Shown piece after piece: positions 13,447 through 36,251 of a DNA stretch of 64,000 nucleotides. Each line of letters starts with the position of its first letter. Position 1 is the first letter of the stretch. The notes below the pieces were generated by a model that saw only the letters and a list, made by a program, of their open reading frames with translations, ran no database searches and had not been told where the DNA came from. The stretch covers positions 1 through 64,000 of the forward strand of contig QPMI01000609.1 of assembly GCA_004431415.1 (NCBI GenBank), written 5' to 3'. The translations under genes and the position numbers were made by a program. Source of the DNA: Cyanophora paradoxa CCMP329 (Eukaryota > Plantae > Glaucophyta).

Positions 13447-15250
13447 CTAAAACTCGATCACAACCAGCCCGTTTCCTCCAGGTCCCGTGGTACCCCCCGC
13501 CGCACAGGGTCCCTCGTAGTCGAGATCATCTGTTCTGGGAGCAGAGGGCCCCGTGTTACCATTGCCCCCTGGAACCGTCAAGGCACCCGTCACACCCGGT
13601 CCGCCAAAGTAACTGGAGCCCCCCCCACCAGCATAGAAGCCTGCACCGCCTCCATAGTACCCCGAGCCACCCCCGCCCCCCGAGTATGCAAAATTGCCCA
13701 CGATCGTACCGCCAGCGTACTTGGAGCCATCGGTTCCTGTGTGGCCGGCACCTCCGCCGGCTGTCTGCGTACCTGGTTGACCTGCTCGCAGTGTGCCTGC
13801 AAAATAGAAGGAGAACTTTCCTCCGGTGAGGCCCCCGCCAACCCCCCCGGGGCCAGTGTTGCCATGGTCAAGATGGCCGCCCCCTCCTCCAGCACCCGCC
13901 GTAATAATATCATCCGTGCCCCCTAGCAGGCGAATAGCAGACCGGCCACCCCCCGATGAGGAGTTTGTGAGGCACTGAACCTGGCCGCCGCCTCCATAAG
14001 GGGCCGCATTCGAGATTGCCGTAGATTTGCCGCCCCCGCCGACTATGATAGTGTACATGGCACCTGGGGTAACAGCCAGAACCCCAGACACGAAGCCACC
14101 CGCACCGCCCTGGTGGCTTCCGGATGCCCCGCCTCCTCCACCGGCCCCCCATAGCTTAACAGAGATCCTCGTGACGCCACCGGGAACAGTCCAGGTCTGG
14201 TCGGCGCCCCTGAATCGGAAGACAACCTTTGGGGCAGGATCGGGCTGCAGGAGCTGGTACCAGACCACAACCAACCCGGGCGATCCGTTATTCGAGCCTC
14301 CATTCCCCCCTGTCCCGGCAGAGGACTCGTAGTCCGCATCTCCTTGGTTGGCGGGAGTCGGGGTTGCCCCTGAATGGGTCAAGCCCCCCGTCACTCTAGA
14401 ATGGGACACAAAGCTGGAACCACCGCCGCCGCCGTTTTGCCCGCCGCCGCCCCCATAATAGCCCCCGCCTCCACCGCCGCCGACAGATGCATTGAGATTG
14501 CCGCCCTTGAATTTCTGGCCGGCCTCTCCGCCCGTTCCCCCAGCGCCCCCTGCTACCTGGGATCCACCGAGACCGCTGTGTGTGTACCCCGAATACCCGT
14601 TTGCACCGCCCACAAGCCCACCTCCCCCTCCCCCTCCGCCGTACTGAATTCCAGCCGACCCCCCTCCTCCGGCAGTGATGAGCTCTTCTGCACCCTCCAG
14701 GATGGCGGACCGTCCGCCTCCAGATCCCATCCCCGTGCTGTAAGTGTGGTAGACCACGTGCCCCCCTCCGCCGTAGACTGGGCTGAGGCAAGCCCCGAAG
14801 TTACCGCCGTACAGCCCTGGGCCTCCGACTACAATCGTCAGCCTTGTTCCGGGGGTGACAGACAGGGTCCCGCCTGCAAACCCACCACCCCCCCCATTGT
14901 TTGTCGACGCGCGTGCCCCGCCCGCACCCCAGAGTTTAATGGTTACGCTTTGGACCCCGTACGGGACGGTCCAATCCTGATCACCCCCCGTGTACCTAAA
15001 AACCGCCTTTTCGGGCGCTGGCGGTGGAAGCAGTACAGGCTTCAAGGGCGGGGACAGGATGCGCAACAGCGAAAGTCCGGACCCCACTGCAATGCTGCCT
15101 ATGCGCTCAAATGCGGCGGAGTTGAGGTACTCACCGAGCCATTCCCTATTTGCGCGGAAGATCTGCAGCGAGGCCCGAGTCGGGACCAGGAGGAGTGTCC
15201 ACGGGGAGAGGTGGGAGATCCCAAGGCTGGCGTAAGTCCTCGGGGCCTGG
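13447..15250 (-). CDS. Glycine-rich protein with two tandem Gly_rich (ALK/LTK-type polyglycine) domains, probable fibre/adhesin; no ATG, probably 5'-truncated
   Basis: Two copies of VFR(Y/F)xGxDQxWTVPxGVxxxxxKLWGAGG...GGGRSAI...ITAGxGG...GYYGGG...GGGGSS...GLVV. The track start at 15087 is GTG and the frame stays open upstream. Confidence 0.75.
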
Positions 15251-15861
15251 TGATCCCATTCCTCGCCCGTGCGACAGGCTCCTGTTCCGGCGGCAGGGTC
15301 GGAGGGGTGGGCTGCACAGGTTCTGGGGCCTTTGCACCCCCTGGAAGGTGGCCGTCGAACTCCCGGTTTGCAAGGAAGGTGACCCCCCCTTGCTCGGAAA
15401 ATAGGGGATCCTGTCTGGCCTCCTTCAGGGTAAGCCCTCCCCTCATGAAGACAGCCTCATCTGTGAGCCTGTCCACGAAAGCACGGAAAGCAGGTCTTCG
15501 CAGGGCCCGAGCTCGTCCTCAAGCGCTGCAACGGCCCTGAGGTACCGTGCACGGGAGCCCTCGTCGTGGATGGATAGGAAGGAGCCCATCAACTTTCCAG
15601 TGATCTGCCTACCGGGCCAAACCCAACCGGCCAAACCTCCTACGATCACGTGCCTGTACCCCATCCCCGTCCAGAATTTGAATTCGGCCAACTGTTATTT
15701 TTTTACAAGAACAACATGGCTACTTTGCTAGAGGTAGCGCACGCAGACAGCAGAAGAGCGGGTCGCCATGATCAGGTTGAAGGGCGTCAACAGGGGACTG
15801 CCACGGGGCCCCCAGGCAAAGAGACCCCCGTACTTGATCTGGGGGACCAGCAAGAACATGG

Positions 15862-16103
15862 CGTGCACGGATCCGGGCTGCCCGCCAGCCCAGCGGAGGG
15901 ACGCTTGCGGTTACTGCGGGCAGGACGGTAGCACGTGCACGGAGGTCCCGTGTGCGCCCGGGCACGTTCGAAATCCGTGCGGGAACGAGTGTATCCACTG
16001 GGAATCTCAGGAGGCCATCGATCGCTTCAATTGCATCTCCAGGCTCCTGGGGAGGGGCAGGAACTTCGAGGATCCCTTCCGCACGAGGTGGGCCCTATGG
16101 TAG
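15862..16103 (+). pseudogene. 3' fragment of a Cys-rich (DACGxCGxDxSxC) protein
   Basis: CTDPGCPPAQRRDACGYCGQDGSTC; same repeat type as 28720-29208. Confidence 0.6.
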
Positions 16104-16111
16104 CTGAAAAG

Positions 16112-16175
16112 TGTGAGGGGCTTGGCCGGTTTTGCTTTCTTTTATACTGTCCCAAAACCGGCCAATCCCCTCATA
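16112..16175. terminator. 23-bp stem hairpin between convergent viral ORF ends
   Basis: tgtgaggggcttggccggttttg / 18-nt loop / caaaaccggccaatcccctcata, with one mismatch and one G-U pair. Lies between stops at 16103 (+) and 16234 (-). Confidence 0.65.
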
Positions 16176-18287
16176 TGAAAAACCGGTACCCCCCTTTTCC
16201 AAAAACTTCACATGATACGGTCACCTGAGCCCATCATATGAAATACCAGTACCCCACATGTCCAAACATAGACTTTACGGGATCAAATTTTCTCCCAGGC
16301 CCGAATAAAGAAGTCCATGGCAGGCATGTATCCGGGGAGTTCCCCTCCGTGGACACCACGCCCGAATGGAAGGAGTACTTCAGCCTCACCCCGCCCGAGG
16401 GGGGTGCGTACAGGATGTGCGCCAACGAGTGCAGGCCCTTTGAGATCCCGATCTCGGGGTGCGCAGACAGGATGCGATGGCGGCCAGGAGATCAGCCGGC
16501 AGTAAAAGTAGCATGGGGGGGTTTGGCCCGTGTCAGTTTTGGTGGCAAGAAATCCCAGATCGGTCCAGAAAAGTACAAACCCATGAAGTTAGACTGGCGG
16601 AAGGTTGCGGGGGCCACAGCGGCGGCGGCGGCAGGCGGGCGGTACCCCGGGGCGGCATTCGGGGCCTGGGACTGGACAGGGTGGTTCTCCCGGCGAGGCA
16701 GGGCCTGGGGCACACCAGCACCCTGACCGTTGAGGACGGAGAGAGACGCGGCCTCAACCATGGCTATATTGAACTGCGAATGGTACTCTAGACTTTAGAA
16801 AAAAAAACCGACCGCACCTCCGACGAAGGACCTGGCCACAACCCAAACGCGACCCAACAATGTCTGCGGCGACATACCACCGTTCCCAGAGCAGCCCGGG
16901 TCCCCTGTTGACGCCGAACCCTACTGGCATAGTGTCACTTTCCGACATAACACCGGGCGAGGCGGAGGAGGCTCTGGGTCGGCACGTTATCGGTTGCGTC
17001 TACTGCCTCGGATATGCGGAGAACGGCGTCCAGGGCGAAGGCTTCCAGGTTTCGCGTGAAATCTGCCCTCTCCCTTTCTTCTCTCATCTGCTTCAGGTCC
17101 TTCGCCCACTCCTGGGCTCGGGTCTGGAGGTTTGTGGGATCTAGGAGCTCCATTGTGATGCACGGTACGAGAGGAGGGGGGAGGTTTGCCGTCCGCGGAT
17201 CAACAGACGTGGCCCCCTTTGCCTGTCTCTCGGCCCTCAGAATCAAAGCCACAAAGCTTCTGGTTCCAGATCAATACTACTCCTGCAACGCTCTACACTC
17301 CAAACGACCTTGTCGGTTTTGCCATGACGGGCATCCGGCTCGTTCGAGGGAGGTCCTGGAGTCCATGGTGCACTTCACGGAGACCACCTGGACGGCCCCG
17401 ACGGCCGGGGGCTCGGGGCAGCGGACGATCTGCAGAGTAGGTGGCCCCCCAGCCGGTATCCCATCCGGTGAGGGATCCCGATTCGGAGGGGGAGGCCAGG
17501 GTGCAAAGGCAGGCCAGCGGATTGGCCCCATTGGCCAGGATAAACACCCCCCTGTCCCGCTTTGCACTGTTGACATCCACGCTGTTTTCCTCGAGTACTC
17601 CCGCCAGGATACGGCCTGTTCGGAGGTGGCACCGGGGGTCTGGCAGGCCTCCTAAGCCCAGGAAGCCCCGAGTTTCATGTCGTAGCATGGGCATGCCCCG
17701 GTAGCGTAATGAAAGGAGGGTACCTCATCACCCCCCGCAAGAACGCGCAGGTCTGCCTTGTCTACACCCCTTTCGGCCCCTACAGAACATCCTGGCAGAG
17801 GTACGACGGTGACTCTCCTCTGCTGCAGACTGTGCACCCTTCTCTGCAAGTAACCTCACTGCAGTAGTAAACCGAATCACACGGGTTACATTTCCCGCAA
17901 AGATATTGTAAGAATCTTCTGGAACGATTCTGTAGAAGCCTGCAACCATCTGCCTGCTCATCTGCTCTAACTCGGCCAATTCCCTGATTACATCATGCTC
18001 TGGGATGTTCATGTTTTGCAACAGTCTGCAGGAGGCACAGGAAAAAGTTTTAGCGGAAGTTCTCCCGGATAAGGCAGAAAGGACCCCAGAACGGCCCTAT
18101 TGCCATTCCAGCCAGGCACTCAAAGCCCGCCTTGACTGCAGCGGTTGCCGGTTTTCTCCGTCGCAGGTCCTTGTGTGCCTCCTCCCATTTTGCTTGAGTG
18201 TCGCCTGTTTTGATGCACCACAGGAAGGAGAACAAGTACAGGGGCTGGGCGACGCCGACGTTTGGAATGGGCGCCGTGTGCCTGAAG

Positions 18288-18566
18288 CTAGTGACCCCGC
18301 TGGGACTCTGGGCGAAAGTGGTGGTGCAGGGAGTGCCTGAATGCGAAAGAAGAGAACTCAGAGAACGTGCATGAATCAAGGAGCCCCCAGCTGGACCTGA
18401 ACTGCTCCAGCGATGCCCAAACCTCCAAGAGATCGTCAATGTGGTCAGCAATCCAGGACGACTCGGCCCTGGTCATGACGTGAGAGTTGTAGGTGTGGCG
18501 CGGGCCCGGGGGGGCGAGATCGCTACCTCTCCTGCGCCCGGCCCCGAATGCGTGAAGTGAGCTCAT
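18288..18566 (-). CDS. Small protein resembling a conserved NCLDV hypothetical family
   Basis: WIADHIDDLLEVWASL..LLDSCTFSEFSSFAFRHS matches the W...DL..W..L...F.DF..F pattern recalled from algal/Imitervirales viruses. Confidence 0.45.
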   Translation of the reverse strand: MSSLHAFGAGRRRGSDLAPPGPRHTYNSHVMTRAESSWIADHIDDLLEVWASLEQFRSSWGLLDSCTFSEFSSFAFRHSLHHHFRPESQRGH

Positions 18567-18657
18567 GCCTGTTGTACGAAAAAGACCTAATTTAGTATAT
18601 TCGGAACGAGAAAGAAAACAGAGCGGCGTCCGGCCGCGCCCGGGCATGGGGTGGCGC

Positions 18658-18966
18658 CTAGTAGTAGTAGTCCTGGCCGTAACCGCCGTAGAAGTCCTGG
18701 GCTGCGGCAACCTTCTTGCCACCCATGGCGGAACCGGCCACGCTAACGAGGGCCAGGAGCAGGCCTGCACAGTTGGCAGCCGTAAGCGTGCCAATCAGGG
18801 CGACCTTCTCCTGGGAGGCGCCCGCATCCTTGGCGCGAGTGATCTCGGTGCCGGCCAGGATTACATTGCAGAGGAAGATGATTCCAAGGAAGATCCAGAA
18901 GATCATACATTTGCCCTTTGCGTTCGGGTCGCAGAACGTGATAAAGCCCGGGAGGTGGAAGGCCAT
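18658..18966 (-). CDS. Small two-TM viral membrane protein
   Basis: 102-aa ATG-to-stop ORF with two hydrophobic helices and an A8 tract ~40 bp upstream. Confidence 0.6.
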   Translation of the reverse strand: MAFHLPGFITFCDPNAKGKCMIFWIFLGIIFLCNVILAGTEITRAKDAGASQEKVALIGTLTAANCAGLLLALVSVAGSAMGGKKVAAAQDFYGGYGQDYYY

Positions 18967-19044
18967 TGCGTGCGAGTGGGAGGCTGTGTGTAGTGTAATG
19001 AAAGAGATTTTTTTTGAACACAGGACCCCTTCTACTCGAAAGAA

Positions 19045-19705
19045 TCAATCCCCTCCAAAGCCGGGTCTCCCGGCGTGGGAGGGACCGGCCCCGGGGTCGT
19101 CCCCAAAATCGGGCCCCGCAAAATCCCCGGACCCCTCCTCCTGCAGAATCACATCAACTCCGGAGACGACCCGGGACGAGATCCGCTTCTGCTTGTACAT
19201 GCGGGTGACGGAACGTTCCGATACCACAAGCTTGCAAGTTGTGAATGCGGTCGAATAGAGCTCCTTGTCCCACTTGGGCTTGTTGACGTTGTTCTCCTTG
19301 CACCAGTTGAAGAACGCTTCCCTGAAGATGCGCTCGGGGCACCATGCCGTGCTTCGGAGGACGACACTCTCGCTCCCGAGGAAGGCATGGACGGGGTTGA
19401 GCTGCATCATCTCGGCCTTGGTCTTCTTGAAGTACTCAGGAACGACAATCCAGATCCCCTGGTTGCCGTACTGCTCGATCGCAGCAAGGTACGCGCGGTT
19501 TCCCTTGACGAGAAGGGCAGGGAGCTCCTCCTTGAGCTTCAGGGGCATGAGGGAGTCGGTGGCCTCCACGGGGCGGTTGAACTCGATAACCATGACACGG
19601 CGAGAGACCGACCCCGAGTTATCGATCCAGCCGGGGCGCTCGTTTCCGGCCAGTATGCCGGGGACGGTCCACCGGACGCTGATGGGCCGCTCACCCTTGA
19701 TTCGG
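19045..19705 (-). pseudogene. D5-like primase-helicase, C-terminal fragment
   Basis: SVRWTVPGILAGNERPGWIDNSGSVSRRVMVIEF...ELPALLVKGNRAYL (SF3 motif C and Arg finger, plus C-terminal domain). Walker A/B absent. Confidence 0.85.
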
Positions 19706-20647
19706 AGGCACGGGTGTAGGAGTTGTGGAATACCAGCTGACTGACGGCGGGGATGCAGGATGCATCGATCGCCGCCTGCTCCCACCGCGGGTGCGTGGAA
19801 TCACCATCGAGCCAGGGCGGCTCCATCGATCCTGTAGACGAGCGTGGCCTCCACTACGGACTGGCCCGCCTGGTTCAACCAGGCCCGGCCCGTATCACCG
19901 CGGGGCGCCGCGGGAATCGCCGGAAAGAAGGAGAGGGATCCTGTCCCTTCTGGTCCCGCGGCCCTCTGCAGCATCAGCCCGGGGACGATGGGAGTGGGGC
20001 AGCCTGTAGTCGGCCCGCATTGTACAGTGTACAGAACGAATACTATCCATACACCGCCCGCATCAGGACGGGCCGGGACATGAATCTCTCCACCTCGGCA
20101 ATGCCCCAGAACTCGCCTCGTCCCTCGAACCTTGAAACGCCCGACGCCCCACCGCAGCCACCGAGGCCGGCGGGGGTGGTGGTGGAAGTGACCAGGAACC
20201 CGCAACCCTCCGAGGGCCGCCCCCGTCCTGAGCCCGCCAGGCCCACCATCCCTTCGCTGGATCACAAAAGCGAGCGAAGGGCGTTCGGCGAGATCCGGTC
20301 AGCCGTCAAGGCCAGGAGCCCGATCGGACCCAACACCTTCCTGCCCAGCGTTAAGATGACGATGGGCGACTTTGCGCTCCGGTACCTTGTGAACAGGATC
20401 CGGAGGCGGGATGAGCTCAGGGAGGCCAGAGAGGGCCCAAAAGATTTTCCGGGCCCACAGGGATCCGACGACCCTGGTGGCTACCATGGACTCTAGCGAT
20501 CGCCCTATGTTTCCGCTGTACTACAGGCTGCCGACCCACACCTTTTTTAACCGGGATGCACGTCGGTCTTACTCGCTCGACTACCCCTCGTTCCGCACCC
20601 CCTCCTTCCGTGATCACAGGATGTACCAGGCGGGACCCTCCCACGAG

Positions 20648-21031
20648 TTGTGGCGTAACTTCTTCGGCTACTTCGATTACCCGACATTCAAGCAGGTGTT
20701 CTCCCAGGTAACCCAGAACTTTGGGGTCATTGTGGGGGATAACACAAAGCCGGGTGCCGCCCGCTCCGAGGACGTGTGCTTCTGGTACCTCGCGGAACAG
20801 CACCCGGCCTTCAGGCTAGGGAGCATGGCTTTTTGGAAGTACCACCTCAAGTACTTTGACCCCAAGGGCGACGATACCTCCGATTCGGATGACGGGTCGC
20901 GGATCCCGGGCGGAGGGGGGAAGGGTGCAAAGGGGGGTGGTGTGCAGGTGCGAAAGGTACCCGCCCTTGGCTTGAGGCCTGGGCCAAGGCAAGAAGAAGT
21001 AGATGAAGATAGCGATATTTCGGATGTTTGA
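20648..21031 (+). pseudogene. A32-like packaging ATPase, C-terminal fragment fused to an unrelated 5' ORF
   Basis: LWRNFFGYFDYPTFKQVFSQVTQNFGVIVGDNTK...EDVCFWYLAEQHPAFRLGSMAFWKYH, typical of NCLDV A32 C-termini. Confidence 0.85.
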
Positions 21032-21413
21032 ATTCAGTCTGGTATACATTCGCAGCGAGTCACGGGAGTAAAACACTGTAACGAGCAAGGATCTCCAGCT
21101 TGGCCCGTTGGGTGTAGGCCCATGCACTCATTGGCTCTTAGGTACTCGTTTCCAGGCTCCCCGTCGTTCTGGCCGTCTCCCAGGCTCGGCGTGGGGCGCA
21201 AAAGAGGTACATCCACAACCCGCTCCGAATTGGGCATGCCGGCAACCCAGGAACGGATCCGGGAGATGCCGATAGTGTACCAGACGCTGAAGGTGGCGGA
21301 GGAGGCATCGCGACGGGAGAGCCTGGCGCTGACCCTCTGAAATGGCATGTCCCGTCCGAACCGGGGTCCCACAGGAGCCACGTAGTAGGGAGGCGTCCAC
21401 TGTTCGGGGCGCC

Positions 21414-21821
21414 TCAGCTGTGACCTGAAACGGATGCCGACGAATATGATCCGCTCGGATTCCGAATCACCCCAGTTTCCGGGATGTCCACCAGAACACC
21501 TGCGAAAAGGGCTAGTTCGTCTCGTTTCGCGGGGGAGGCGGCGCGCAGGGCGGCACGTACCCCCTCGAATACGATGCGCCGGTTCGACAGGTTGGCCTTT
21601 CGGAAGGCTTCCTCCATCAGCACCGAGACAATAGTAAATGCCTTTTCAATGGATTTCGTATGAAGACGGAGCTCGTCGGGCGGAACCCAAGTCATCTTTT
21701 GGGGATCTATACCCTCTATGAAATCTAGAATGGCTTCAATTCGCTCCATCGCGGACACACGCCACTCGGCCCCCCGGTTAAGGGCACCAGGGGGAGGGAT
21801 GGGCGGGGGCAAAAGATTCAT
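21414..21821 (-). CDS. Hypothetical helical viral protein
   Basis: Intronless ORF with an A6 tract upstream. Confidence 0.4.
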   Translation of the reverse strand: MNLLPPPIPPPGALNRGAEWRVSAMERIEAILDFIEGIDPQKMTWVPPDELRLHTKSIEKAFTIVSVLMEEAFRKANLSNRRIVFEGVRAALRAASPAKRDELALFAGVLVDIPETGVIRNPSGSYSSASVSGHS

Positions 21822-21893
21822 ATTCACGTACCTTCTTGCATATGGAAAAAATCGAGACCCGCCAGAGTGCTGTGATAGATAAAGGCCGAGGAA

Positions 21894-22580
21894 TCAGCGG
21901 CGACGTGACCGAGCGCTCGCAAGGGCACGGCGGACCACAGCCGCCGTGGCCCTGCGCACGTATGCATTCGAACGCCGACGAGGAGGGGGTGCGGTCAGCA
22001 GGAGGATCTGGGGCTCCGGAACTGCCATGGCAATGGGAACGGACGAACGCCGGGCCCGCGACCGCTTGGGCTTGGGGGGGCTTTGATACTCCTGGGTAAT
22101 TACAATCCGGGGGTTGTTGGTGAGATACCGTTCCTGCTCATCGATGGTCATATCCGTCCCGAATCTGTCAAGCGCGGGACCATACAATTTGAGCAAGGCC
22201 GCCGTTGGGCCGTTCTTGTTCGCGAGCGATCCCAGCAGCGACTTATTCCCAATTGGCCTCGCGTGAATAACCGCAAGCTCTTCTGGGGTATAATTATTCT
22301 CAATCGACGTGGGTCGCTTGCGTTTACCGCGGCTGGGCCCTGCCTCCACGACCTCAATGTGGTTCTCAGGGATAACAAGACGCCCGGTTCGCTTGAAGAT
22401 TTCCATCATTCCATCTAGCAGACAGGTGGATCCCGCCCTCCGCATCGAATCCCCGGGGTGTGATGGTGCGGATGTAGGGATCGTGCCCCTGTACGATCAT
22501 CGCCGTGTACTCCTGGAGCTTGTGGAATTCAGCCTGGCGGATCAGGACTTCGGCCGCCAGCTTCTGGGGCTGGGTCCAGC
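21894..22580 (-). pseudogene. Hypothetical viral protein fragment(s) with basic C-terminus
   Basis: Overlapping frames 22366-22587 and 21894-22445; no ATG at the 5' junction. Confidence 0.4.
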
Positions 22581-22925
22581 CCCGCAAATTCGAAGACCGT
22601 CTCGTCGATTCCGAACTTGGCAGTGAACGGAACCTTCAGAACAACCTGCTCCGGACCCTGCCCGGTGGGGTTCTTGATCACGTAGATTGCACCGTTGTTT
22701 CCCCTGCCCAGCTCCCCAAGTATGCTGATCTGGGTTCTGCTTGGCTCGAGGTAGAACTGGTCCATGCTCTTGAGTATGCCGGCAACCGGGCCGCTCGCCC
22801 TGCTGGTGGCGATCCTGGACCACGCAAGGAGGCACTCCCGCTTCAGGTCGCCCTCCGAGATCGTGTACCACCTCATGAAAGTTGCGGGATCGGCTGCATC
22901 ATCCTTGGTCTCCCTGGGATCAGAG
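22580..22925 (-). pseudogene. Ser/Thr protein kinase N-lobe fragment
   Basis: ILGELGRGNNGAIYVI...QVVLKVP (Gly loop and VAIK-equivalent); the remainder is missing. Confidence 0.65.
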
Positions 22926-22928
22926 GCG

Positions 22929-23477
22929 CTAAGTCGTCGAAGTGGAGGGGCCGGCACCGGCCTGCGTAAGGAGATCTGCGGTTGTTGTTCCGGTTCCCAG
23001 GCCGGACGAGGATCCCGTTCCGGCGCCGGATCCGGTGCCCGTCCCCTGATCGCTACGGGGGCACCGGGGATCGTTGGGGTTCGCGGCGCAGAACATACCG
23101 ACCACCGTCCTGCAGTCCGATCCCTGGCGCATGGTGCACCCATCGACGCAGGAGTAGGAAACACGGAGATTCTTGGAGCTCTCGTAGGCCGGGTCGCCGC
23201 CCTGCCCGTAGCCCCTGTAGGAATCCACTCCCCAGGTGCCGTCGCCCCCGGCCATCGGAGAGAGGGTGGTCCCCGGCCACGATGTGTTCTCCACCCTCTG
23301 CTGAAGATGCGCCGTGAAGTCCGCATTCTGGTGACTCGGGCACGTGAGGTCCGTTCCTGTACCGTAGCAAGCCTTGATGATCTTGGGAAACTGGCACGAG
23401 AACACGAGGGGTGTCGTCACTGCATCCGCCCGATCTATGTTGGGGTGGCGAATGGGATCAACTGCAAAGGAGCTCAT
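22929..23477 (-). CDS. Paralog of the lectin-A16/G9-like protein, short or truncated
   Basis: FSCQFPKIIKACYG...GGDPAYESSKNLRVSYSC...FCAANPNDPRC aligns by eye with 12494-13444; no TM tail. Confidence 0.7.
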   Translation of the reverse strand: MSSFAVDPIRHPNIDRADAVTTPLVFSCQFPKIIKACYGTGTDLTCPSHQNADFTAHLQQRVENTSWPGTTLSPMAGGDGTWGVDSYRGYGQGGDPAYESSKNLRVSYSCVDGCTMRQGSDCRTVVGMFCAANPNDPRCPRSDQGTGTGSGAGTGSSSGLGTGTTTADLLTQAGAGPSTSTT

Positions 23478-23532
23478 TCCAGGTAATCCTATTCTGTCCT
23501 GATATTTTTTTGTGGTGCACTACGAAATAACA

Positions 23533-25766: not shown

Positions 25767-26192
25767 CTGGGCCGCTATGACCAAGTGGATGCCGTTGTGT
25801 CTCCCGTTCATGAAGACGTAGCGCATGTACCGATCGTTCGCGATCGCACTCTTGTTGAAAAGGCAATCGTCCAGAACGATGAACACGCCAGGTGGCTTTT
25901 GTCCCGTCTTCGCAATCCTCTGCTGGTTCTTGACGATTCCCTTGATGACATCGGGATCGTACTCTGCATGGATGAACAGGCCCGGGCAGTGCTTGGACCA
26001 TGTTGGGTTCGCCGGCGATTCCGTGGGGGAGAAGATGACCCCGGAATCTATGTGCCGGTAGTGGTACATCAGATCGAGCATCAGGGTTGTCTTCCCTGAA
26101 CCCCGCCGCCCAATCACACCGAAGACTCGGTAACCCGAGAAGTGTTTCGGATCGAACTTCCTGAGGTGCAGGCTCTGACCCCCGGGCGGCAT
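25767..26192 (-). pseudogene. A32-like packaging ATPase, N-terminal half
   Basis: LRKFDP..VIGRRGSGKTT (Walker A), FSPTE, FIHAEYD, FIVLDDCL (Walker B), FMNGRH..VIAAQ; homology stops immediately after the Q. Confidence 0.92.
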
Positions 26193-26241
26193 CCTTCAGG
26201 TGTTGCCGCGGGGAAAAATCGGGGGGCCACGAACACGCTGT

Positions 26242-26718
26242 TTATGCAGAGACCTTGACAAGCCTGAATGATGCATTCCAACCGGGCATCTTCTTCTGGA
26301 CAGGCCGGCTGCGGCCCACCTTCTTGGATGCCTGCACCCTGAGCACAAGATGGACGGCCCTGCTCTGGGCCCACTCTATGTACTCGTTGTCTCGATCGAT
26401 CGACCTGGAGTACCAGGCGCTCCGGGAATGGATCTGACTCTTCATTCGCTGAATGGCCTTCTTGTGGCTCGCTTCCACGGCCCGCGGCCTCAGGCTCCCT
26501 TTCCGTGAACCAACCGTTGTTCTCATGCGGGCAAGCTCGGCTTCCAGTGCAAAAAGCTGCCCGTGAAGCTCGTCTATCTCCAGGGGCCAGGCCCGTACGA
26601 GCGCGTCCCTGCGCGCTATGATGGCCGGAATTCTCTTTTCAAGTTCCTGCAGCTCATAGTATTCCTTTGTCGCCTTTCCCACGGGCTTGTAAACACGGCT
26701 TGATTTCGTCTGCGTCAT
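26242..26718 (-). CDS. Hypothetical basic coiled-coil viral protein
   Basis: MTQTKSSRVY... to stop at 26242. Confidence 0.45.
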   Translation of the reverse strand: MTQTKSSRVYKPVGKATKEYYELQELEKRIPAIIARRDALVRAWPLEIDELHGQLFALEAELARMRTTVGSRKGSLRPRAVEASHKKAIQRMKSQIHSRSAWYSRSIDRDNEYIEWAQSRAVHLVLRVQASKKVGRSRPVQKKMPGWNASFRLVKVSA

Positions 26719-26777
26719 TCCCCCGGTCGTGTTGCAAGGCGGGCAAGAAAATAATACAGGATGAGCGTAATCGGCGA

Positions 26778-27220
26778 TCAAAGGGGGGTGGGGGCCTGAG
26801 GGAGGGCGAGGAGTTTGGAAATGGCCTTGATGATCCCCTCCCTGTCGAGGCTCGCATCCTGGAGGACCTTTGCGGCGTTCATCCGCAGCTGCTCCTTTGT
26901 CAGGTGCTCGAAGTTGTACACGTTGAAAGTCGAGACCCGGATGCACGAATTGCACGTGATGAGCGCGTCACTTCCGCCCACGATGGTGAGATCTGCAACG
27001 CGCACGCGAACCTCCGACAGCTCGGGGCAGTCGGGGTGCGAGAAGCCCGGTAGGATGAGGAGCTGCCCCTCGGCGACCGGTCTGTTCCAGAGCGTGCCGT
27101 ACAGGAAGTCGACTAGCTTGTGGTCGTGGTCCCTGGTGATCCTGTCCATCGCAGGGTCCAGGAAGATGACTGTGCAGCTCAGCACGGTCCCGAGGTCGTG
27201 CAAGACCTCAACAGCAACGG
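26778..27220 (-). pseudogene. 5'-truncated hypothetical protein
   Basis: Open frame with coding-like codon use but no ATG at its left-facing start; divergent junction with the + strand fragment at ~27225. Confidence 0.45.
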
Positions 27221-27226
27221 TCTTAG

Positions 27227-27760
27227 ATGCACCAGGGGGCTCCCATCAATTTCTGCAGGAACCCCGCGCACGGCAGACTCTGCCTTGCGTGCTTCAAAAC
27301 CTGGGTAGAGGCCAAGGTGAGGTGCCTGGAAGATAACAGGCCCGTTGCGATGAACCGCACGCTCTTCCAGGTACAGCAGGCGGGGCAGGTGGAAGCCGGC
27401 AATGCATCCTTCCGCCCCCCAACCAGGTACAACTACAACCCGCCCCCTCCACGCAACACAGCCCCCCCAACCCGGTCCGATCCAGTACGGCCCGCGCCCC
27501 CAGATGGTCTACCGGCCCCCTTCCGCCCCCCACCCCGGTACGACCCGACCCGCCCCAGCTTTTACCCGGCTCGACGAGTTCCACAGGCCGGTGCAGGGGC
27601 GCGAATGTTTGGTTACCTCACGCAGGCCGGCAGGGGCCTAGCGACCGCTGTCAAGGTCACAAGAGAGTTCATGGGCAGGGTAGATGCGGCACGCAGGGAA
27701 ATAGAGGTGAGGGACAGGACGAACCCGGCAAATCTGCCAATCAGAGGAAACCAGACCGCT
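27227..27760 (+). pseudogene. Fragment with partial RING-like Cys/His cluster and Pro-rich region
   Basis: FCRNPAHGRLCLACFKTW..RC followed by RPPTRYNY-type Pro-rich sequence. Confidence 0.4.
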
Positions 27761-28719
27761 GCCCACATTGCGGTACATGCCGACCTGGATGGTGACGACG
27801 AGCGTCCGGAGCGATTTGGGGATGTCGTCCTTTGCCCTGGAGAAGGCAAGGGGGTCGATGTAGCGCGGCACCGAGTAGTTGTAGATGCGTCCATCCAGGT
27901 AGACCTCCTCGAGGCCTGGGAGGCCCCGCAGGTGTGCGAAGGCCTACTGTCTGTACGCCGGAAACACACGCTTCACCCAGAACTCCCTGCCCTGGATCGG
28001 CCACCTGTTCCGAAAGACGACCGGCTCCAGTACCGGAGGAGGCCGACTGCGGGCGGGGCCGGGAGGAGGACGACGAGGAGGACGCCATATGCATTCCACC
28101 CTGGGGGCTGAATCTTTTCCGGCCCGCGCAAACGCGGTGGTGCCGGGCGTACAGTTCCCTGAGGGTCGCACGGTGCTTGGCTAGCGATGGAAAGTGCTTG
28201 CCACCGAAAGGATAAGAGGCAAAGGGGGGTGCAGGAGTCCCGTTGTCACGGTAGTCCGGCATGCACGAGGCACAGTGAAAGGCGACCCCCTCCAAGAGGC
28301 AGTGCATGGAGCCAAGAGCCAAGGCCATCGAGCCTTCCTGTGCGGGCCCCTCTAGGGATCCGCCCTGGCCTACCAGGGTTTCAAAGGCCCTCTGCGCTCC
28401 TGCGAGTCGTTGGACTCTAAGGCAGGCCCGGCTTGCTGCATCGGCTTCCAGTTCGCTCATATTGGCAGTACACGGGACGCTACCCCCTACAGCCCACACT
28501 TCTGCAGCTGGTCCGGACGCATGGGGCGGAAGTGGGTGAACCCCATCTCCATCAGGAGGTCAAGGCGGTGTGCCATCGCCTCCTCGAGCGTGTCGAACTG
28601 GGCGGCCTCCTCGTCATCCCCGAGCCGGTCCGATGTCCACTTGGTCGTTCCGGCAATTTCGGTCCTCCCGTGGACGAAGAACTTGCCGGATTCAGTATCT
28701 TTCTGCACCAGGAGCGGGA

Positions 28720-29208
28720 GGTGGAATCCTCACCGGGGGGGCATCCGGTGGCGGGACAGACATTGGGCGTCTCCCCTTCAAAGGCACAATCCCCGCAGCC
28801 GTTTCTGTAAGAGCTGGCCATCTCGCACCCGGGACCCCGGCAGGCCGAACCGTTGCCCCCACAGTCTCCACAGTCGTCACGGTGGATGCCCGCTGGGCAT
28901 CCCCTGTCTGTGCAGAGGTTCCCATTGCCACCACACATGCCGCACGCATCCCGAATCATCCCAGGGGGGCATCCCTTGGAGGTGCACGTAGAGTTGTCAC
29001 CCCCACATATTCCACATGCATCCGGGGGCTCCCCCAGCCGGCAGTTGAACACAACATTGTTCTCTTCGGGGGAGGTTGTTCCAGTGACCTCCAGGAGATC
29101 TCGTGCCCTTGATCTGGAGGCGCGGACCGACAGGAAGGTAGCGTAGGCTGCGGCCGCTATCAGGATGATCAGGATAACCGCCTGGTCGATACCTGTCCGA
29201 CCAGACAT
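28720..29208 (-). pseudogene. N-terminal TM plus Cys-rich DxCGxCGGxxSxC repeat protein, 3'-truncated
   Basis: TM AVILIILIAAAAYATFL, then DACGICGGDNSTC, DACGMCGGNGNLC, DDCGDCGGNGSAC. Confidence 0.7.
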
Positions 29209-29216
29209 GCATCGAG

Positions 29217-30395
29217 TCAACACACACAACCTGCTACCGAGAAAAAGTAGAGGGCACTACACCGAGGATGAACAGAGGCGGACACGAAGGGCTGGATGAG
29301 CCCGTCGCCCTCGTGGCCGTAGACGGAGATGGTGGCCATCTCCATCCCGAGATTCAGGAGCAACATGCCGGTAAGACTCGCAAGCGTGCTCGCAACCCCC
29401 TCCTCGTGCGACATCCCGGCGGCGGTGTCTGCCATGTTCATCACGGGGATGTGCATCTCGAGGGTGCGGAGGGCGCTCGGCAGGGAAAAGGATTCGAGGG
29501 GGAAGCTGATGGGACCCTCGCGCCGCTTCAGGTTGCCGCTGATGATGATGAGCTTCTCGAGCGACTCCCACTTCTTCGCACTCCGCAGGATGCACCGGAC
29601 CACCTCGGTCGAGCAGGTGTTGGCGGTGAAGGTGACCTCGCGGGGGCCGGCCTCGTTGTGCGGGATGCAGTAGAAGCAGGCCCCCAGCGTGGAAGGGTCG
29701 TCCGCTTGCTGCTCTCCGGGCACCCCGAGGATGCTCATGAGGCCCCCGAGGCTCCCGGCGGACGCCTCCGACATTCTGAACGAGCGGCTGGGGTCCTCTG
29801 GGTATCGGCGGACGGTGAACCGCTGGATGTTGGGAAACGCCGCCCCAACCCCGGGCATGTCGATCTCCCAGGGCGGCGGGTGGGAGCTGGCGTTTGCGAT
29901 GAGAACCGTGAGATCATCGACCGACGGCAGGGGTGTCCCCGGGAGCCAGTCCTCCTCGCCCTCCGCCGTCAGCTCTAGCGTCCTGAGGTTCGGGAGGGGG
30001 GCCTGGACGTTCGCCTTGCCGGCGGCCTTGAGGACGCCACCGAGTTCCGCGGAGGAGCAGGAGAGCCGAGCGAGGCGGGAGAGTGCGACGCTGAGGTCTG
30101 CCCTGGTGCGGGTGGAGACGTGACTGCCGATTTCCACCGGTACCGGCCCGCTGCCATTCGGTCTCTTGAGGGCGAGGGTGGTCGCTCCGATTTTGGAGAT
30201 GCAGGCCAGCAGCTCGACGGCCTTGAAGGGGGCCCGGGGGATGTCCTGGACCATGGTGATCTCCGACGGACGGGCGTGCTCCGGGACGAACGCCTTCACC
30301 CACGTGAAGAAGTTGGAAGCGGCCGGCGTCATGTCGCCGGGGGCCCCGAAGCGGCTGCAGTAGCGCGTGTAGGAGTGCAGCTCGTACGAGACCAC
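29217..30395 (-). CDS. Leucine-rich-repeat (RNI-like) protein
   Basis: LPNLRTLEL, LPSVDDLTV, FPNIQRFTV, SLEKLII, ALRTLEM motifs; start uncertain. Confidence 0.55.
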   Translation of the reverse strand: MVSYELHSYTRYCSRFGAPGDMTPAASNFFTWVKAFVPEHARPSEITMVQDIPRAPFKAVELLACISKIGATTLALKRPNGSGPVPVEIGSHVSTRTRADLSVALSRLARLSCSSAELGGVLKAAGKANVQAPLPNLRTLELTAEGEEDWLPGTPLPSVDDLTVLIANASSHPPPWEIDMPGVGAAFPNIQRFTVRRYPEDPSRSFRMSEASAGSLGGLMSILGVPGEQQADDPSTLGACFYCIPHNEAGPREVTFTANTCSTEVVRCILRSAKKWESLEKLIIISGNLKRREGPISFPLESFSLPSALRTLEMHIPVMNMADTAAGMSHEEGVASTLASLTGMLLLNLGMEMATISVYGHEGDGLIQPFVSASVHPRCSALYFFSVAGCVC

Positions 30396-31046
30396 CGTGC
30401 ATCCACGGGAGCGCAGGAAGGATCGCCCCAGCAGGCGATGTCTGCGTCATCACCTCCCCGAAGCGCCCTGGAATCGACCTTGATGGATGCGTGGAGGGAG
30501 GGAGTGATGTACGGAGCTGAGTGTCCCACCCCCCTCTTCAAAGGCCCTGGGGGCCGAGGTTGGTGGCCGTGGTCGCATTTCCCTGGGTCTGGGCACGGTA
30601 CAGGAGGTCCTGCAGGTCCATGCTGGTCATCTGGGAAGTCTACGTGCAGGGCTTAACCCCCACCGGGGCAAGGGCTGGCATGGTACCCCAAAGGACCACA
30701 AAAAGTCGGATCGGACCCAGACGCCTGAACGCGTCCCCCCGGCCCACCACAAACTCTCTGCTACATTGCAAAAGCAGCCAAATGCCGGCAGAGTCTGTTG
30801 AAACAGTTCGAGACCCCGTCACCGTCGTTCTGCACCTGCTCCTGATGGGGCGGTCCGCCGGACACCCGTTCGTGCAGATATCGGTGTTGGGGTACCAGCG
30901 CCCTCCCAGGCGCGGCTGATCTCCACTCCTACCGTCCAGCTTGATCGTGTGCTTGCCTTTCGCTTTCCGTTGCCATCCGTATGCTCGCAGTCCATGTTCT
31001 GCATGTCGATCTTCAGGACCAGCTGGTGTGGGTTTGGACCCTTTTA

Positions 31047-31244
31047 GAAGACCTGGGGGGCGCAGTAGACCCCGTTTCGGTACGCGAATATGTGCCGGTC
31101 CCGCACAAGCTCGGGAAACTCCATCGTCAGGCAGTTCTTGAGGCTGGTGACCAGGCAGCCCCTAACCGACGCGTGGGAGTGCATGAGCTTGTACATGCTG
31201 TAGTAGACATCCTTGTTGGTGAGCTCCTCGACCAGGCGCTCGAT
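31047..31244 (-). pseudogene. D5-like primase-helicase, internal (D5_N region) fragment
   Basis: LKNCLTMEFPELVRDRHIFAYRNGVY matches the F.EL..DRH..SF.NG.Y motif. Confidence 0.75.
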
Positions 31245-31449
31245 TGACATGATCAACGAGGTGGACGCTAAGCTTGAGTCGAAAGCATCCGCGGCCGGGC
31301 TTTTCAATAGCTTGACAACAAGTATTCTATTCATCGTGGCGGGCATAGTGGTCATTGCCTTCCTTGTCATTCGTTTCGGGAAATCAAAACCGAAAGCACC
31401 TACATCCGCGGCGGCTGCTGCCACCGCAGCAGCCGCCGCTGCCACCTAA
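31245..31449 (+). pseudogene. C-terminal fragment of an L1/F9-like virion membrane protein
   Basis: INEVDAKLESKASAAGLF, then a TM helix and basic tail; 5' part missing. Confidence 0.45.
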
Positions 31450-31599
31450 GAGGATGGGAAGAGGATGGATGCCCGGGTGGAGAGGATAGAATCGGGGGGG
31501 TTCAGGGCCGGGGTGTTCGATTCTTCCGACGCACACTCGGCAATAACGGACCACTGCTGCTCCCCCCTGCGAACGGCGATCAAGCCGAACCCGTAGTTT

Positions 31600-32234
31600 C
31601 CGGTATTGATGTCACCGCTTTCCATCCTCTCTGCAAGGCGCTTGATCTTGTTGGCCCCTGCTGGGTTGGCCCGAGGGCTGCAGCTGATATCAGTGGTTTA
31701 TGCCATTCAACCAAAGAAACCGCCGATGATCTTACAAGACTGCCTAGCGTCCCTTGCCATCGCAGCATGGGGCTCGTCCAGGTGGGTCAGCAACCACGTG
31801 AGGCGATGGACAGCCGCCTTTGCAGCCTCCGGCTGGACGCGGCTTCGGAGTACGATGTTGTGCCCCCCTTGATCCTGGCGGAGGCCATCCTCGCATCCCT
31901 ACCGGACGGCCCCGTCGTTCTACAGATCTCCCACGAACCCATGTGGTTGAACCCGGTGTACGAAACGGCCCGCGGGGCTCTGGCAGTTGCGGCGGCCGTG
32001 TTGGAGGGGCGCCCGGATCGAACCGTCAAGGTTGTCATGGACGTGGTGCCCCTGGGAGAGCTCGAGGCCTCTCCTGCATTCCTGGGCCAGCTGGTCAAGA
32101 ACGCAGCGGGCGTGTACCTCCGCAGCTGCATCGTTCCCGAGGGGAGGCCCAATTCGGCCTCTGCCCTTGCCTTTAAGGCCCTCGAGGCCGACGGAAGGAA
32201 GTTTGTGGTCACCGGGCACGTCGGCCTGCCTTGA
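31600..32234 (+). CDS. Hypothetical viral protein
   Basis: Open frame extending upstream of the 31767 ATG; start uncertain. Confidence 0.4.
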
Positions 32235-33232
32235 TGTGTGTGCGATGTGTACAGAGAATGGATTGAAACTGCCCCCAGAATCACTGTCACTTGAAATATA
32301 TTTCTGCTAGGTATCCTAGACACTCAAAAGGGTCATGCCGTCGAGCTCTATCGCAGTTCAAGGCCATGATGATGCAGAGGCAGGGCATCCAGTTCGATCG
32401 CAAGTTCGACGCCAACACGCCCCTTCCGGAGCTGCGGGCCGAGGTTCGCAGGGCCGCCCGCGTCACGTCTCCCAGGTTGTGCCCGAACCGGGAGAGCCCC
32501 AGCCGAGCGTCTTGGAAGCCGGATGCCACCTGGCCCCCCACGCTATTGTAAGCATCCCCAGCATTCTGCAGGCCGCGTGCCCACGCGCCTTGCATGCCTG
32601 CGTAGGCCATCGAAGGGTTTGGGTTTGCTCTGCGGTCAGAAAAAAACACCATGGCCCAGAATATATTATGTTGCGGTGATCCCGAGCCCACCCCGCCATG
32701 TCCGAAAAGCTAACGGCCACCGGCGCGACCCTCCTCCTAATGCAGAACAGATGGCCTGTCCAGCCTCGGGGCAATGTGGATTGTCATCTCCTTGGGAAAG
32801 AACCAGCGCTGGTTGAGCTGACGGGGACACCAGTGCTTTCCGTACTTTGCGCCGCGCTTCTTCTGCTTGTGGATCTCGTCCTCGACGACGAGGCCCTGGG
32901 CGTAATTCCACCCGATAACGATGTCCACAGTCTTGACGGCCGAGAACAGCGGGGAGCTCAGGGCCAAGAGGACAGCTGGGAGCCCTCCCTTGAGGTCGAC
33001 CCAGGGACCTCCTTTGGCTTTGATGCCATCGAGCACGGTGCAGGCGCGCTGGGTCTTGCCTGGTCCACCGTTGGCCCTGCGGCCCCAGAGCCGCCAGTGC
33101 AGGTTTTCGCCCTCCACATCAAAGATGACACGGCGGGGCCATGATAGGAACCGGGGCGGCCTGCATTGCACAACAACAAAGGGCACGCTGCTAGGTTGTT
33201 GGGGGGGAAAAAAATACTGACCAGAGTGAAGA

Positions 33233-33685
33233 ATGAAGGACAGAGGCGGGATACCGGTGGCCCCAATCCTTCTCCTGGCGACCCTTGCGGTTCTGGCACT
33301 CTTCTGGTTTTCAAGGGACGACCAGGGCGTGCCCAAGAGCGAGGCCCCGATCCAGGCTGCCCCCTTGCCCTCCAGGCCTCCCCCTGCAGCGGCTCCATCC
33401 ATCCCCCAGCAGCCCCAACTGACAGCCCCCGTGCCAGGCGCCCCTGTAGGATCTGCCGGGCCGATTATCACTGATGAGGGAGGTGCGGATGGGTGGGACT
33501 ACACGGATGAGCTTGAAAAGCTGATTCCCGAGGTGCAGTCTCCTTACATCCCTCCCGATTCCGTCTTACCCTCCGCGGGTCCCGTGCTTGTTGCCCCCCC
33601 AATCGAACAATCCAGCGGGCCGGTCGAGATCGACGAGTGGGATGCCGACTGGTACACTGGGGGCTGGGACGAAGAATCGACCCCA
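33233..33685 (+). pseudogene. Signal/TM-anchored Pro/acidic protein, 3'-truncated by a convergent Cys-rich fragment (~33680-33940, minus)
   Basis: MKDRGGIPVAPILLLATLAVLALFWF... with an A7 tract upstream. The opposite strand reads CTGTGLCNSHCP/CTATGVCDDTCP/CSPTGTCNTTCP. Confidence 0.6.
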
Positions 33686-34010
33686 GATCGGTACCTGTCC
33701 CGAGGGGCAGGTCGTGTTGCAGGTTCCTGTAGGGGAGCACTTCATCCCGTCGGGGCAGTTGTACACCCGGTACCAGCCCGGGGGACACGTATCATCACAA
33801 ACCCCGGTCGCAGTGCAGAGGGTTCCGTCCTTGCAATCGGCGATCGGCCACGTCGAGGGGGGGCAGTGGCTATTGCAGAGGCCTGTTCCCGTGCAGACAT
33901 GTTTGCGCTCCTTCCGGATGATATCACGAGGAAGAGAGTACTTATAGCCGGCGGGGGCAATCCCCGGTCACCTTGCAGCCACCTCGCAGACCAAACCAGC
34001 AGCAGAAGCC

Positions 34011-34343
34011 ATGGGCAAGAAGCAGCAGCAGAAGAAGCAGCGCGGCGGCCCCGAGAAGAAGCCGAAGAAGGAGCCAATCGACCTCGACGAGCTGAGCGCG
34101 GACGAGAGCGTTCCCGCGGCGACCGGCGGCCCTGGGGAGGCGCCGGCGGCCAAGGAGAGCGCTCCCGTCGTCGAGGCAGAGAAGACCGCGGAGGCCAAAG
34201 AGGCCGGGGAGCCAGAGACCAAGCCAGAGGCCGAGGAGCCAAAGGCAGACAAGGCCGCCGAGACCGAGCCCAAGGCCAAGCCGGCGGTGGAGGAGCCCGA
34301 GGAAGGCTCCGATGGGGAGTTCGAGGAGTCCGACATGGACTAG
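34011..34343 (+). CDS. Small Lys/Glu-rich disordered protein
   Basis: Complete 110-aa ORF with strong codon bias. Confidence 0.65.
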   Translation: MGKKQQQKKQRGGPEKKPKKEPIDLDELSADESVPAATGGPGEAPAAKESAPVVEAEKTAEAKEAGEPETKPEAEEPKADKAAETEPKAKPAVEEPEEGSDGEFEESDMD

Positions 34344-34425
34344 GCCCCGCCCACCCCGCCCCACCAGCTAGCCGGATGTACAGCACGGCCAGGCTTTCCA
34401 ATTCCGTACTTTCATTGCGCATGTG

Positions 34426-34755
34426 TCACATGGGCCGGGTGGTTCCGCGGCCGCAAAACCGCGGGCGGAAGGAGAGGTAGTTTGTGTACCGGGAGCCGTC
34501 GCGCCTGAAGCAGACCACGATGCCCTGGTGCTCGTTGAGGTAGCGGGTCTCGCCGGCACCGTGGGAGTCGTAGATCAGCCGGTGGATCTTCTCGGGCCGC
34601 GACGAGAGCTCGACGTAGCTGGCGGGGCCCTTGCAGAGGATGGGCGGCACGGTGCGCGAGAACAGCCGCCCGAAGCGTAGGGCGCGCAGGGCGAACCGCG
34701 CCCTCCGCACCGCATCGGGGCCCAGGGCGTCCCGCGCGGCCCGGCACGAGTCCAT
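34426..34755 (-). CDS. Hypothetical viral protein
   Basis: ~110-aa ORF with strong GC3 bias. Confidence 0.45.
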   Translation of the reverse strand: MDSCRAARDALGPDAVRRARFALRALRFGRLFSRTVPPILCKGPASYVELSSRPEKIHRLIYDSHGAGETRYLNEHQGIVVCFRRDGSRYTNYLSFRPRFCGRGTTRPM

Positions 34756-35349
34756 CACGGCTAGACAGGAATTGTAACAATGAAAGGGCCGCCGGGGGCG
34801 ATCCGGACTACGAGACCACCCTCAGGCGCCACAACCACCCGGGGCTCGTCTCCGGGCGCGGGGAGCGGCATGCGGACGAGCTCGCCGAGCGTGCAGGGGA
34901 GACGGGCAACCCCTGGCAGTCCCCGACGCTGGAGATGCGGGCAGTCTACTTCAACGTCCGGAGAGCCCTCGAGGGCGCACTGCGCACCAAGCTCGGCGCA
35001 GAGGACCTGCAAGGGTCCAGGCAGGGCGTGCTCTCCGGCATGAAGAACATGTTCACGGCAGCTCAGATCCGCCGCCTCCTACGGGCGATGTGGATAGAGC
35101 CTTTTGCAGCCAGGGACGACCCTTCCGAGGAGAGGAACCGCAGGATGGTCGCCGAGATGTTCGTGCTCGATGAACCATTTGGGTGGCTGCGGGACGGGTC
35201 CGCTCAGGTCGCCCGCACGAGGCGCCTGGTATGGAAGCGGGCCACGCGGTCCCAGCCCCGCCTCCTGATTCACCGGGAAGACAACTACCAGCACCCAATC
35301 AACAAGACGAAGGAGTGGTTCCTTGATTTCATCGAGAACGTTCTGCCCA

Positions 35350-36251
35350 GGCTTGGCCGGGTTTTTGGGCGGCTCGGGGTGGCGGCCGTGCGAGGTGTAC
35401 ACGTAGACAAGCCTGTCGCCAAAGTCCATGGTGGCCATCACGAAGCCCTTTTGCGTGGAGTGGTCCACGATCAGGGGCCGCCACTTGGCCGTGTTCGGGT
35501 TGCGGAAGAGCTCCTCGATCTTCTTCTCCTTCGGCGGCCGCAACTGCTCCGGGGTGGCGCACCAGGTGCACAGGGGCATGGTAGGGGGGCCGCGCCGGGG
35601 GACCAGGGGCTCGGCGTAGGTGGCCAGGCGGCAATCGACGTTGTAGCACTTCTGCTTGGGGACGCTGAGCATGCACGGTCCGCAGCGGATCCCAAACTGA
35701 CGGGGCCGGGTGCATCCGGGCATGTCGCACAGGGGCTTGCAGGCCTTGCAGCAGGCGTCACCCTCCATGGGCGGGTCCGCCTTGCACTTGATGCACTTCT
35801 TCCCGGCGGCCTCCCTGAAGCAAAGGCGACAGGCGTCCTGGCCCAGCTCCTTGAAGTAATCGCGGCCGCATCCGCACATCTCGCGCTTGGCGTGCTCCTT
35901 GCAGAAGCCCGCAGGCTGGACGTGGCCGGGGAGGTTCCGCATCGGCATCTTCAGGCCAGCCCTGATGCACTCGGCGCAAGGCAGGCTCCGGGGGTCCGTC
36001 CCGGGGGCGGCCTTCATCCGCGCATCCCGGACCTGGCACTTCTTGCACATCCCGGCACGCAGCGTGGCCCGGCTCAGGAGCAGGCCGCACCCGCAGCGGG
36101 TGCCGCCACCGCACGCCCCGCACCTGTCGAAACCATCCTGGGCCCGCTTCGGCTTCCCGGAGGCCACGCACGCCTCCCCTTCGCACAGCTTGACCTCCTT
36201 CTTGGCGCGCTTGGCCGCGGGGGCGTCCCGGGCGTCCTGCTCTCCCTCCAT
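35350..36251 (-). CDS. Cys-rich multi-zinc-finger protein, 3' end colliding with a convergent fragment (34935-~35350)
   Basis: NLS-like AKRAKK, CEGEAC..KRAQDGFDRCGACGGGTRC (WRKY19-like finger pattern) and many CxxC pairs. Confidence 0.65.

Follow-up and report, generated by a model that had tools for sequence, protein, structure and literature searches.

The 64,000-nucleotide stretch analysed here (the window; positions 1 to 64,000, forward strand, of contig QPMI01000609.1 from the glaucophyte Cyanophora paradoxa CCMP329) is intron-rich eukaryotic DNA of high guanine-plus-cytosine (GC) content, with a block of lower GC at about 11 to 36 kb. We found that this block is an insert carrying genes of giant-virus (Nucleocytoviricota) type, lodged inside an exon of a host nucleotide-cyclase gene, and that two of its genes lie in separated, out-of-order pieces. 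The reading that we favour, with a probability of about one half, is that the insert is a defective giant-virus genome that underwent a burst of breakage and end-joining and was then integrated, att-fashion, at a CC core.

Scrambled giant-virus genes

GC content is 0.61-0.63 over most of the insert and 0.67-0.71 in the flanks. Homologue searches recognised two Nucleocytoviricota hallmark genes, the A32 packaging ATPase and the D5 primase-helicase, both fragmented:

10,847-36,445: whole insert, 25,599 bp
19048-19705, minus: D5 C-terminal piece, profile 458-646 of 652
31056-31253, minus: D5 middle piece, profile 222-287 of 652
20645-21031, plus: A32 C-terminal half, P0157 residues 173-289
25767-26192, minus: A32 N-terminal half, 83% identical to P0157 residues 9-144
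19753-20641, plus: Pro/Arg-rich gene piece that reads on in frame into the A32 C half; a frameshift of one base is apparent near 20425
25104-25766, minus: repeat-containing gene piece that continues the reading frame of the A32 N half

Only one of the 147 open reading frames (ORFs), a glycine-rich gene, gave a clear Pfam match, and none matched a transposase or other mobile element. No major capsid protein or family B polymerase was found among these ORFs and 42 trimmed pieces, from which very divergent pieces could escape. Self-BLASTN found short local tandem repeats and no dispersed repeats inside the insert; no host DNA was recognised in it, no introns were seen and no tRNA was found. The nearest named proteins to its genes are Cyanophora paradoxa gene models. 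Judged by its sequence, the insert is a giant endogenous viral element (GEVE) by origin, with A32 and D5 integrated in a eukaryotic chromosome; lacking capsid and polymerase genes, it does not appear to be a complete provirus.

The A32 gene can be compared with an intact relative, P0157 (293 residues), encoded on a 21.5-kb Logan contig and belonging to the same small clade. In the insert, 5 kb and a change of strand separate the two halves, and 29 codons present in P0157 are gone. Similarity drops abruptly at both breaks, stopping at P0157 residue 144 at junction 25767 and beginning at residue 173 at junction 20648, an in-frame fusion; both halves are joined in frame to unrelated pieces. The homologue search yielded 1895 A32 relatives (the PF04665 match is weak), and the C half is also matched by 82 of 150 relatives, with 29 residues the commonest gap between the halves.

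The closest relatives of the window A32 are two gene models labelled Cyanophora paradoxa. P0007 equals the window letter for letter at residues 1-73 and 75-88 and is a spliced model of the window locus. A second A32, about 85% identical (against window 25907-26042), lies elsewhere in the genome on contigs of 1.6-2.5 kb and is represented by model P0006; a related virus thus left at least one further trace. We dropped the idea that this copy is broken too, its ends being possibly splice-model artefacts, as with P0007. The window, P0006 and P0157 sequences form their own long-branched clade (support 97 in a quick tree with no named references), are about 80% alike, and are 46% or less identical to the next relatives.

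For D5, full-length relatives have 636-657 residues, of which the insert retains profile positions 222-287 and 458-646 only (the profile match of the C-terminal piece runs from 19701 to 19135), and the pieces lie 11.4 kb apart instead of about 0.5 kb. These relatives, 22-43% identical to the insert pieces, are located on giant-virus contigs; the 109 loci that carry them have nothing else in common with the insert, and no close viral relatives of the insert were found in IMG/VR or JGI metagenomes.

Mapping onto full-length relatives, as a first-pass annotation of this sequence had proposed, thus places A32 and D5 in separated, out-of-order pieces. The inverted A32 half and the 11.4-kb D5 gap require inversion plus transposition, not deletion alone. 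The annotation had also preferred rearrangement to decay by point mutation, which agrees both with the two displaced genes and with the A32 substitution counts: among 108 sites the window has 10 private changes and the two relatives 11 and 7, so that, at the sequence level, the broken A32 seems to have changed no faster than its relatives.

Could an unusual small virus natively carry its genes in this arrangement, some of them truly fused and others short? Homologues are lacking for most pieces, truncation is seen directly for A32 and D5 only, and several read-through ORFs stay open, all of which would suit such a virus. For A32 and D5 the idea is already contradicted, because an intact 293-residue A32 exists in the same small clade and the D5 pieces are without the P-loop region; the missing capsid and polymerase genes also speak against it. 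We consider it very unlikely.

The first-pass annotation had named 14 junctions as signs of pervasive scrambling, and 11 of these now have support beyond reading by eye. Four are supported by full-length relatives (19705, 31245, 25767 and 20648), three by paralogues within the insert (22925, 28720 and 15861), and four by a codon-model frame switch alone (22580, 27225, 27760 and 35350; the cut-off was a gain above 6.2, the maximum of 55 in-gene controls), a frame switch by itself being no proof of truncation. The other three are weak by codon-model gain: 33685 (4.8), 32455 (3.2) and 24755 (-4.2). Two more likely junctions lie at about 31050 and about 34770, and breaks are spaced at one per 1.4-1.8 kb. 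A start or stop is missing near an end in 12 of 25 core coding segments versus 41 of 262 control segments (Fisher p 4e-4, an optimistic value since the controls come from 14 intact giant-virus contigs, some of them near-identical). The description of the joints as head-to-head or tail-to-tail stands in part: by eye, four are head-to-head and five tail-to-tail, and the remaining five join pieces on the same strand. Joints at restriction sites (GATC, GANTC, CATG, RGCY and others) were tried and rejected (best p 0.05 among 27 motifs in 14 hand-set intervals), and none of these motifs marks the joints.

Read support was assessed with short-read contigs matched to 17200-37199; the left end and junction 15861 fall outside this range. 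A single contig of run X2 (26,905 letters, enough to extend to about 9.5 kb) matches 17200-36432 with 0 other letters and 0 gaps, and contigs of X1 (4 pieces) and X8 (2 pieces) likewise match without differences; the agreeing contigs come from runs of 2012, 2019 and 2024. Because the X2 contig spans this interval without a difference, misassembly, which would have undone the first-pass reading, is excluded for 13 of the 14 junctions. Right-end contigs overlap across the insert/host boundary. In three runs the insert contigs have depths of 34, 31-36 and 115 and the right flank 29, 30 and 125, a closeness that suggests a single copy.

Inverted joints are typical of amplification chimeras, and most runs containing the sequence are possibly the assembly's source: the 24 runs listed represent one organism rather than independent strains, and 19 are flagged as possible sources. 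A chimera of assembly or amplification is nevertheless already contradicted from 17200 to the right end by the difference-free contigs of three different years across 13 of 14 junctions; moreover, all sampled words of 18500-28400 are present in 20 of the 24 listed runs, and there is no duplicated DNA. We give this explanation a negligible chance. The listing of runs containing the sequence included no RNA run, and one RNA-type run that was compared gave short matches only, which counts neither way on expression.

Insert ends and the interrupted host gene

5200-10846, plus: 5' part of the host adenylyl/guanylyl-cyclase-like gene, last exon cut by the insert (start approximate)
10845-10851: left junction, CC core then CTATC
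36384-36447: right end, with recurring motif, imperfect direct repeat of 10883-10901, GATAG and CC core
36446-38030, plus: 3' part of the host cyclase gene (PF00211, E 3e-4; eight motifs in order)

The left flank shows eight cyclase or membrane-helix motifs in order on the plus strand, from 8341 to 10741. Across both flanks, 16 motifs chosen from the sequence are colinear on the plus strand right up to the insert ends. A host codon model applied to the flanks was discarded, antisense frames having swamped its signal. An apparent one-base frameshift at 37890-37950, where the motifs of the second cyclase domain switch frame and an intron would not fit, looks like either post-disruption decay or an assembly error.

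The left junction reads CC/CTATC and the right junction (36441-36447) GATAG/CC, where the slash marks the insert boundary; the same CC dinucleotide core thus stands at both junctions, within a CTATC/GATAG inverted repeat. Removal of the insert together with one CC restores the host frame: LLVLALLEFLGW. With CC cores at both ends and an empty site in frame, the ends are intact, as the first-pass annotation had held. No inverted repeat extends beyond 5 bases at the ends, and there are no terminal inverted repeats of hundreds of bases. The right-end motif (36384-36446) recurs at several other loci with unrelated neighbours.

Origin of the scrambling

The data show that the ATPase and helicase pieces come from a virus and lie inverted and out of order, that sequence was lost at the breaks and none duplicated, that the ends are precise, and that the host gene is unbroken on either side. 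Under the reading that we favour, a failed infection would have left viral DNA cut to kb-sized pieces, some of which end-joining may then have sealed into a small circle that would include one 6-kb fragment with the attachment site (right arm plus left arm). A recombinase from an intact co-infecting genome would have integrated this circle in trans, and the host would finally have silenced the integrated element. A variant of the same reading, in which a provirus broke up in a single event soon after its integration, would look no different.

The main rival is that a provirus, still intact when it entered at the CC core, then suffered stepwise internal deletions and inversions over many host generations. 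Intact ends would be expected from this; A32 and the Cys-repeat gene described below could each be an inversion with breakpoint loss, the one lying within the other; that GEVEs become truncated and lose core genes is well known from the accessible text of PMC11890097 and PMC12455990; and the apparent frameshift near 20425 would indicate some ageing. Stepwise decay has more difficulty with at least 11 junctions in 20 kb that came without a transposon insertion, without duplication and with the adjoining dead host gene unbroken, and with an A32 that shows no speed-up. Provided that breaks ignore sequence origin, the probability that 4.1-7.9 kb of dead host gene would stay unbroken is 0.11-0.013 at the break density of the insert. 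The unbroken host gene, the lack of duplications and mobile elements, and the A32 without speed-up together favour a burst confined to viral DNA, and we regard stepwise decay as possible, on balance doubtful.

Several observations weigh against a burst followed by att-type integration. First, a young provirus could have gone through some 15-20 stepwise events and still carry the low point-mutation load seen here. Second, the 6.1-kb fragment spanning the ends is long compared with the mean piece of 1.4 kb (p 0.07). Third, a 3- or 4-base target duplication (CTC or CCTC) fits the ends equally and restores the frame too. Fourth, the end signature has a probability of 1.8e-4 per pair of positions, for ends that were picked by eye, and with 30x30 candidate pairs about 0.16 chance end pairs are expected. 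Fifth, an 87-base contig of about three-fold depth carries the right-end motif followed by 44 letters unlike the flank, so not every occurrence of the motif is simply a terminus. Finally, searches of the 147 ORFs, the trimmed pieces and the candidate 34779-35351 found no tyrosine recombinase.

The possible CTC or CCTC duplication, and the recurrence of the right-end motif at several other loci with unrelated upstream DNA, would suit a host non-autonomous DNA transposon with CTATC/GATAG ends that captured viral DNA at gap repair, as in Pack-MULEs or complex organelle insertions. Complex or mosaic nuclear insertions of mitochondrial and plastid DNA (numts and nupts) are a precedent, being put together by end-joining from several foreign fragments before or during insertion, as described in the available part of PMC6215612. 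Set against a Pack-type transposon, the insert shows a terminal inverted repeat of only 5 bases, its virus-like genes start about 400 and about 200 bases from the ends with intact 5' ends facing outward, and no host DNA was recognised inside. Transposon capture is therefore unlikely in our view.

The ends are best compared with phaeovirus endogenous viral elements in brown algae, for which the accessible text of PMC13236599 describes CC-CC junctions, an inverted repeat round the core, right-end direct repeats and integration by a tyrosine recombinase. The insert shares the CC-CC junctions and the short inverted repeat round the core (PMC13236599 and PMC11890097, as far as their available text goes), and the imperfect direct repeats near the right end; its right-end motif, which is present at several loci, may be a further likeness. 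It differs in having no detected tyrosine recombinase, a repeat of 5 bases, a glaucophyte host, a length at most a tenth of theirs and a scrambled interior. The likeness is one of ends, which need not mean a shared lineage. The resemblance, as read from the junction letters, is notable though it rests on few of them, and the insert does not appear to be a phaeovirus-type element with its own recombinase.

Like other GEVEs, the insert has A32 and D5 clustered in a host chromosome, a distinct GC content and missing core genes; unlike them, it is only 25.6 kb long, its genes are broken and reordered at intervals of about 1.4 kb, its ends are kept to the base, and no transposon, duplication or intron is seen in it. 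Decayed GEVEs of other genomes have been truncated and invaded by transposons and carry duplications (accessible portion of PMC12455990), and the origin of giant-virus insertions and the cause of their fragmentation are called unclear in the text available of PMC11890097. The interior resembles chromothripsis in its clustered breaks, shuffled order and orientation, and lost pieces without gains (PMC13390643, available part): the A32 and D5 pieces are out of order and inverted, with losses and no duplications. Here, however, the broken molecule is viral and not a host chromosome, and the likeness lies in the pattern of order and loss alone. Unlike complex numts and nupts, the insert is viral, and its ends are specific and att-like where theirs are plain repair joints. 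Polinton-like viruses and virophages (14-40 kb according to the accessible text of PMC12220804) share its size range and a packaging ATPase, but long terminal inverted repeats are missing from the insert, as are a capsid gene, an integrase and a protein-primed polymerase, and its D5 relatives are on giant-virus contigs; its sequence would not place it in either group. The insert is thus a GEVE by origin, with ends like those of phaeovirus insertions and an interior like chromothripsis or a complex numt.

A second piece is present in the insert for two genes certainly and for up to four possibly, which suggests that a sizeable share of the parent genome was kept. Our rough estimate for the parent runs from tens of kb up to about 150 kb. 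Its capsid and polymerase genes must have gone, yet the parent need probably not have been many times larger. A broader proposal, which we think improbable, is that the alga routinely shreds giant-virus genomes and keeps a family of cassettes, scrambled inside but intact at the ends and differing in the fragments that they contain. A helper virus might still excise such cassettes and package them as interfering genomes, or they might be heritable templates for small-RNA defence.

Ends kept to the base around a clean, single-copy interior make a rare record in which the route of insertion can be separated from the break-up, and the host is a cultured haploid model alga. The insert points to recombinase-type integration outside brown algae and, through its three-member A32 clade, to an undescribed virus lineage infecting glaucophytes. 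If the other loci with the end motif prove to be scrambled differently, a repeated shredding process would be open to direct study. The accessible text of PMC12344493 mentions C. paradoxa GEVEs as methylated viral gene clusters, without structure, and the main text of the 2019 genome paper for the species contains 'virus' or 'viral' 0 times. In the literature searched, which excluded subscription papers, bioRxiv supplements and figures, we found no account of the insert, nor of any GEVE that is shuffled inside and has preserved ends; Fig. 3 of PMC12344493 may show one.

Remaining pieces and neighbouring features

11256-15087: left arm, apparently intact, comprising the next four genes
11256-11915, plus: apparently intact gene
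about 12389-11949, minus: apparently intact gene
12494-13444, plus: apparently intact Cys-rich gene with C-terminal membrane anchor, 316 residues
15087-13447, minus: apparently intact gene with two glycine-rich domains (PF12810, E 2e-25)
15858-16103, plus: probable C-terminal half of a Cys-repeat gene (Z=13 versus shuffles; truncation complementary to 29214-28720)
22583-22930, minus: piece ending just past a GxGxxG...VLKV motif (codon-model support)
22929-23477, minus: paralogue of the 12494 gene, 182 residues, without membrane anchor (Z=31)
28720-29214, minus: N-terminal half of a Cys-repeat membrane protein (partner 15858-16103)
29217-30420, minus: piece of 375+ codons, longer than any other open piece in the core, without a family match
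31243-31449, plus: isolated C-terminal membrane anchor (weakly similar to that of the 12494 gene, Z=5)
34779-35351, plus: helical protein piece, cut at 35350
35352-36251, minus: Cys-rich terminal gene, start intact, likely cut at 35350

The pieces at 29214-28720 and 15858-16103 are likely halves of one Cys-repeat gene, judging from their complementary truncation, and 15858-16103 could instead be a paralogue. The alignment of the 23477-22929 gene with the 316-residue gene at 12494 covers residues 25-139 of the latter, and the anchor at 31243-31449 is possibly the lost tail of the 23477-22929 gene, given the weak similarity. The GxGxxG...VLKV motif in 22583-22930 is presumably kinase-like; a kinase label for the insert pieces was rejected, with no database match and no C-lobe motif found in the insert. 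The 34779-35351 piece gave a weak Atlas lead (0.86) to HEPN-domain proteins, and its candidacy as a recombinase is unsupported, the predicted fold being unusable (predicted local distance difference test score, pLDDT, 38). The terminal Cys-rich gene matches only itself among proteins of 165-525 residues and has no Atlas match. Four degenerate tandem repeats of about 70 bases at 25240-25520 code for a QPFxISQVRYNY unit, to which an FR..RYNY motif in the 27227-27760 piece is loosely similar without scoring as a homologue.

Outside the insert, the block at 39000-42600 has an AT-rich spacer and convergent ORFs that lack Pfam matches, and it is possibly another mobile element. A 234-base direct repeat (46849-47082 and 49548-49781, 85%) arises because a gene lying at about 46.9-48.6 kb has its 5' part duplicated downstream; from its GMNPGPFGM motif we take this gene to encode a SMUG1-type uracil glycosylase. 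Finally, 54400-64000 holds a long minus-strand coiled-coil gene with Trp-containing repeats every 99 bases, presumably Sfi1-like centrin-binding repeats.

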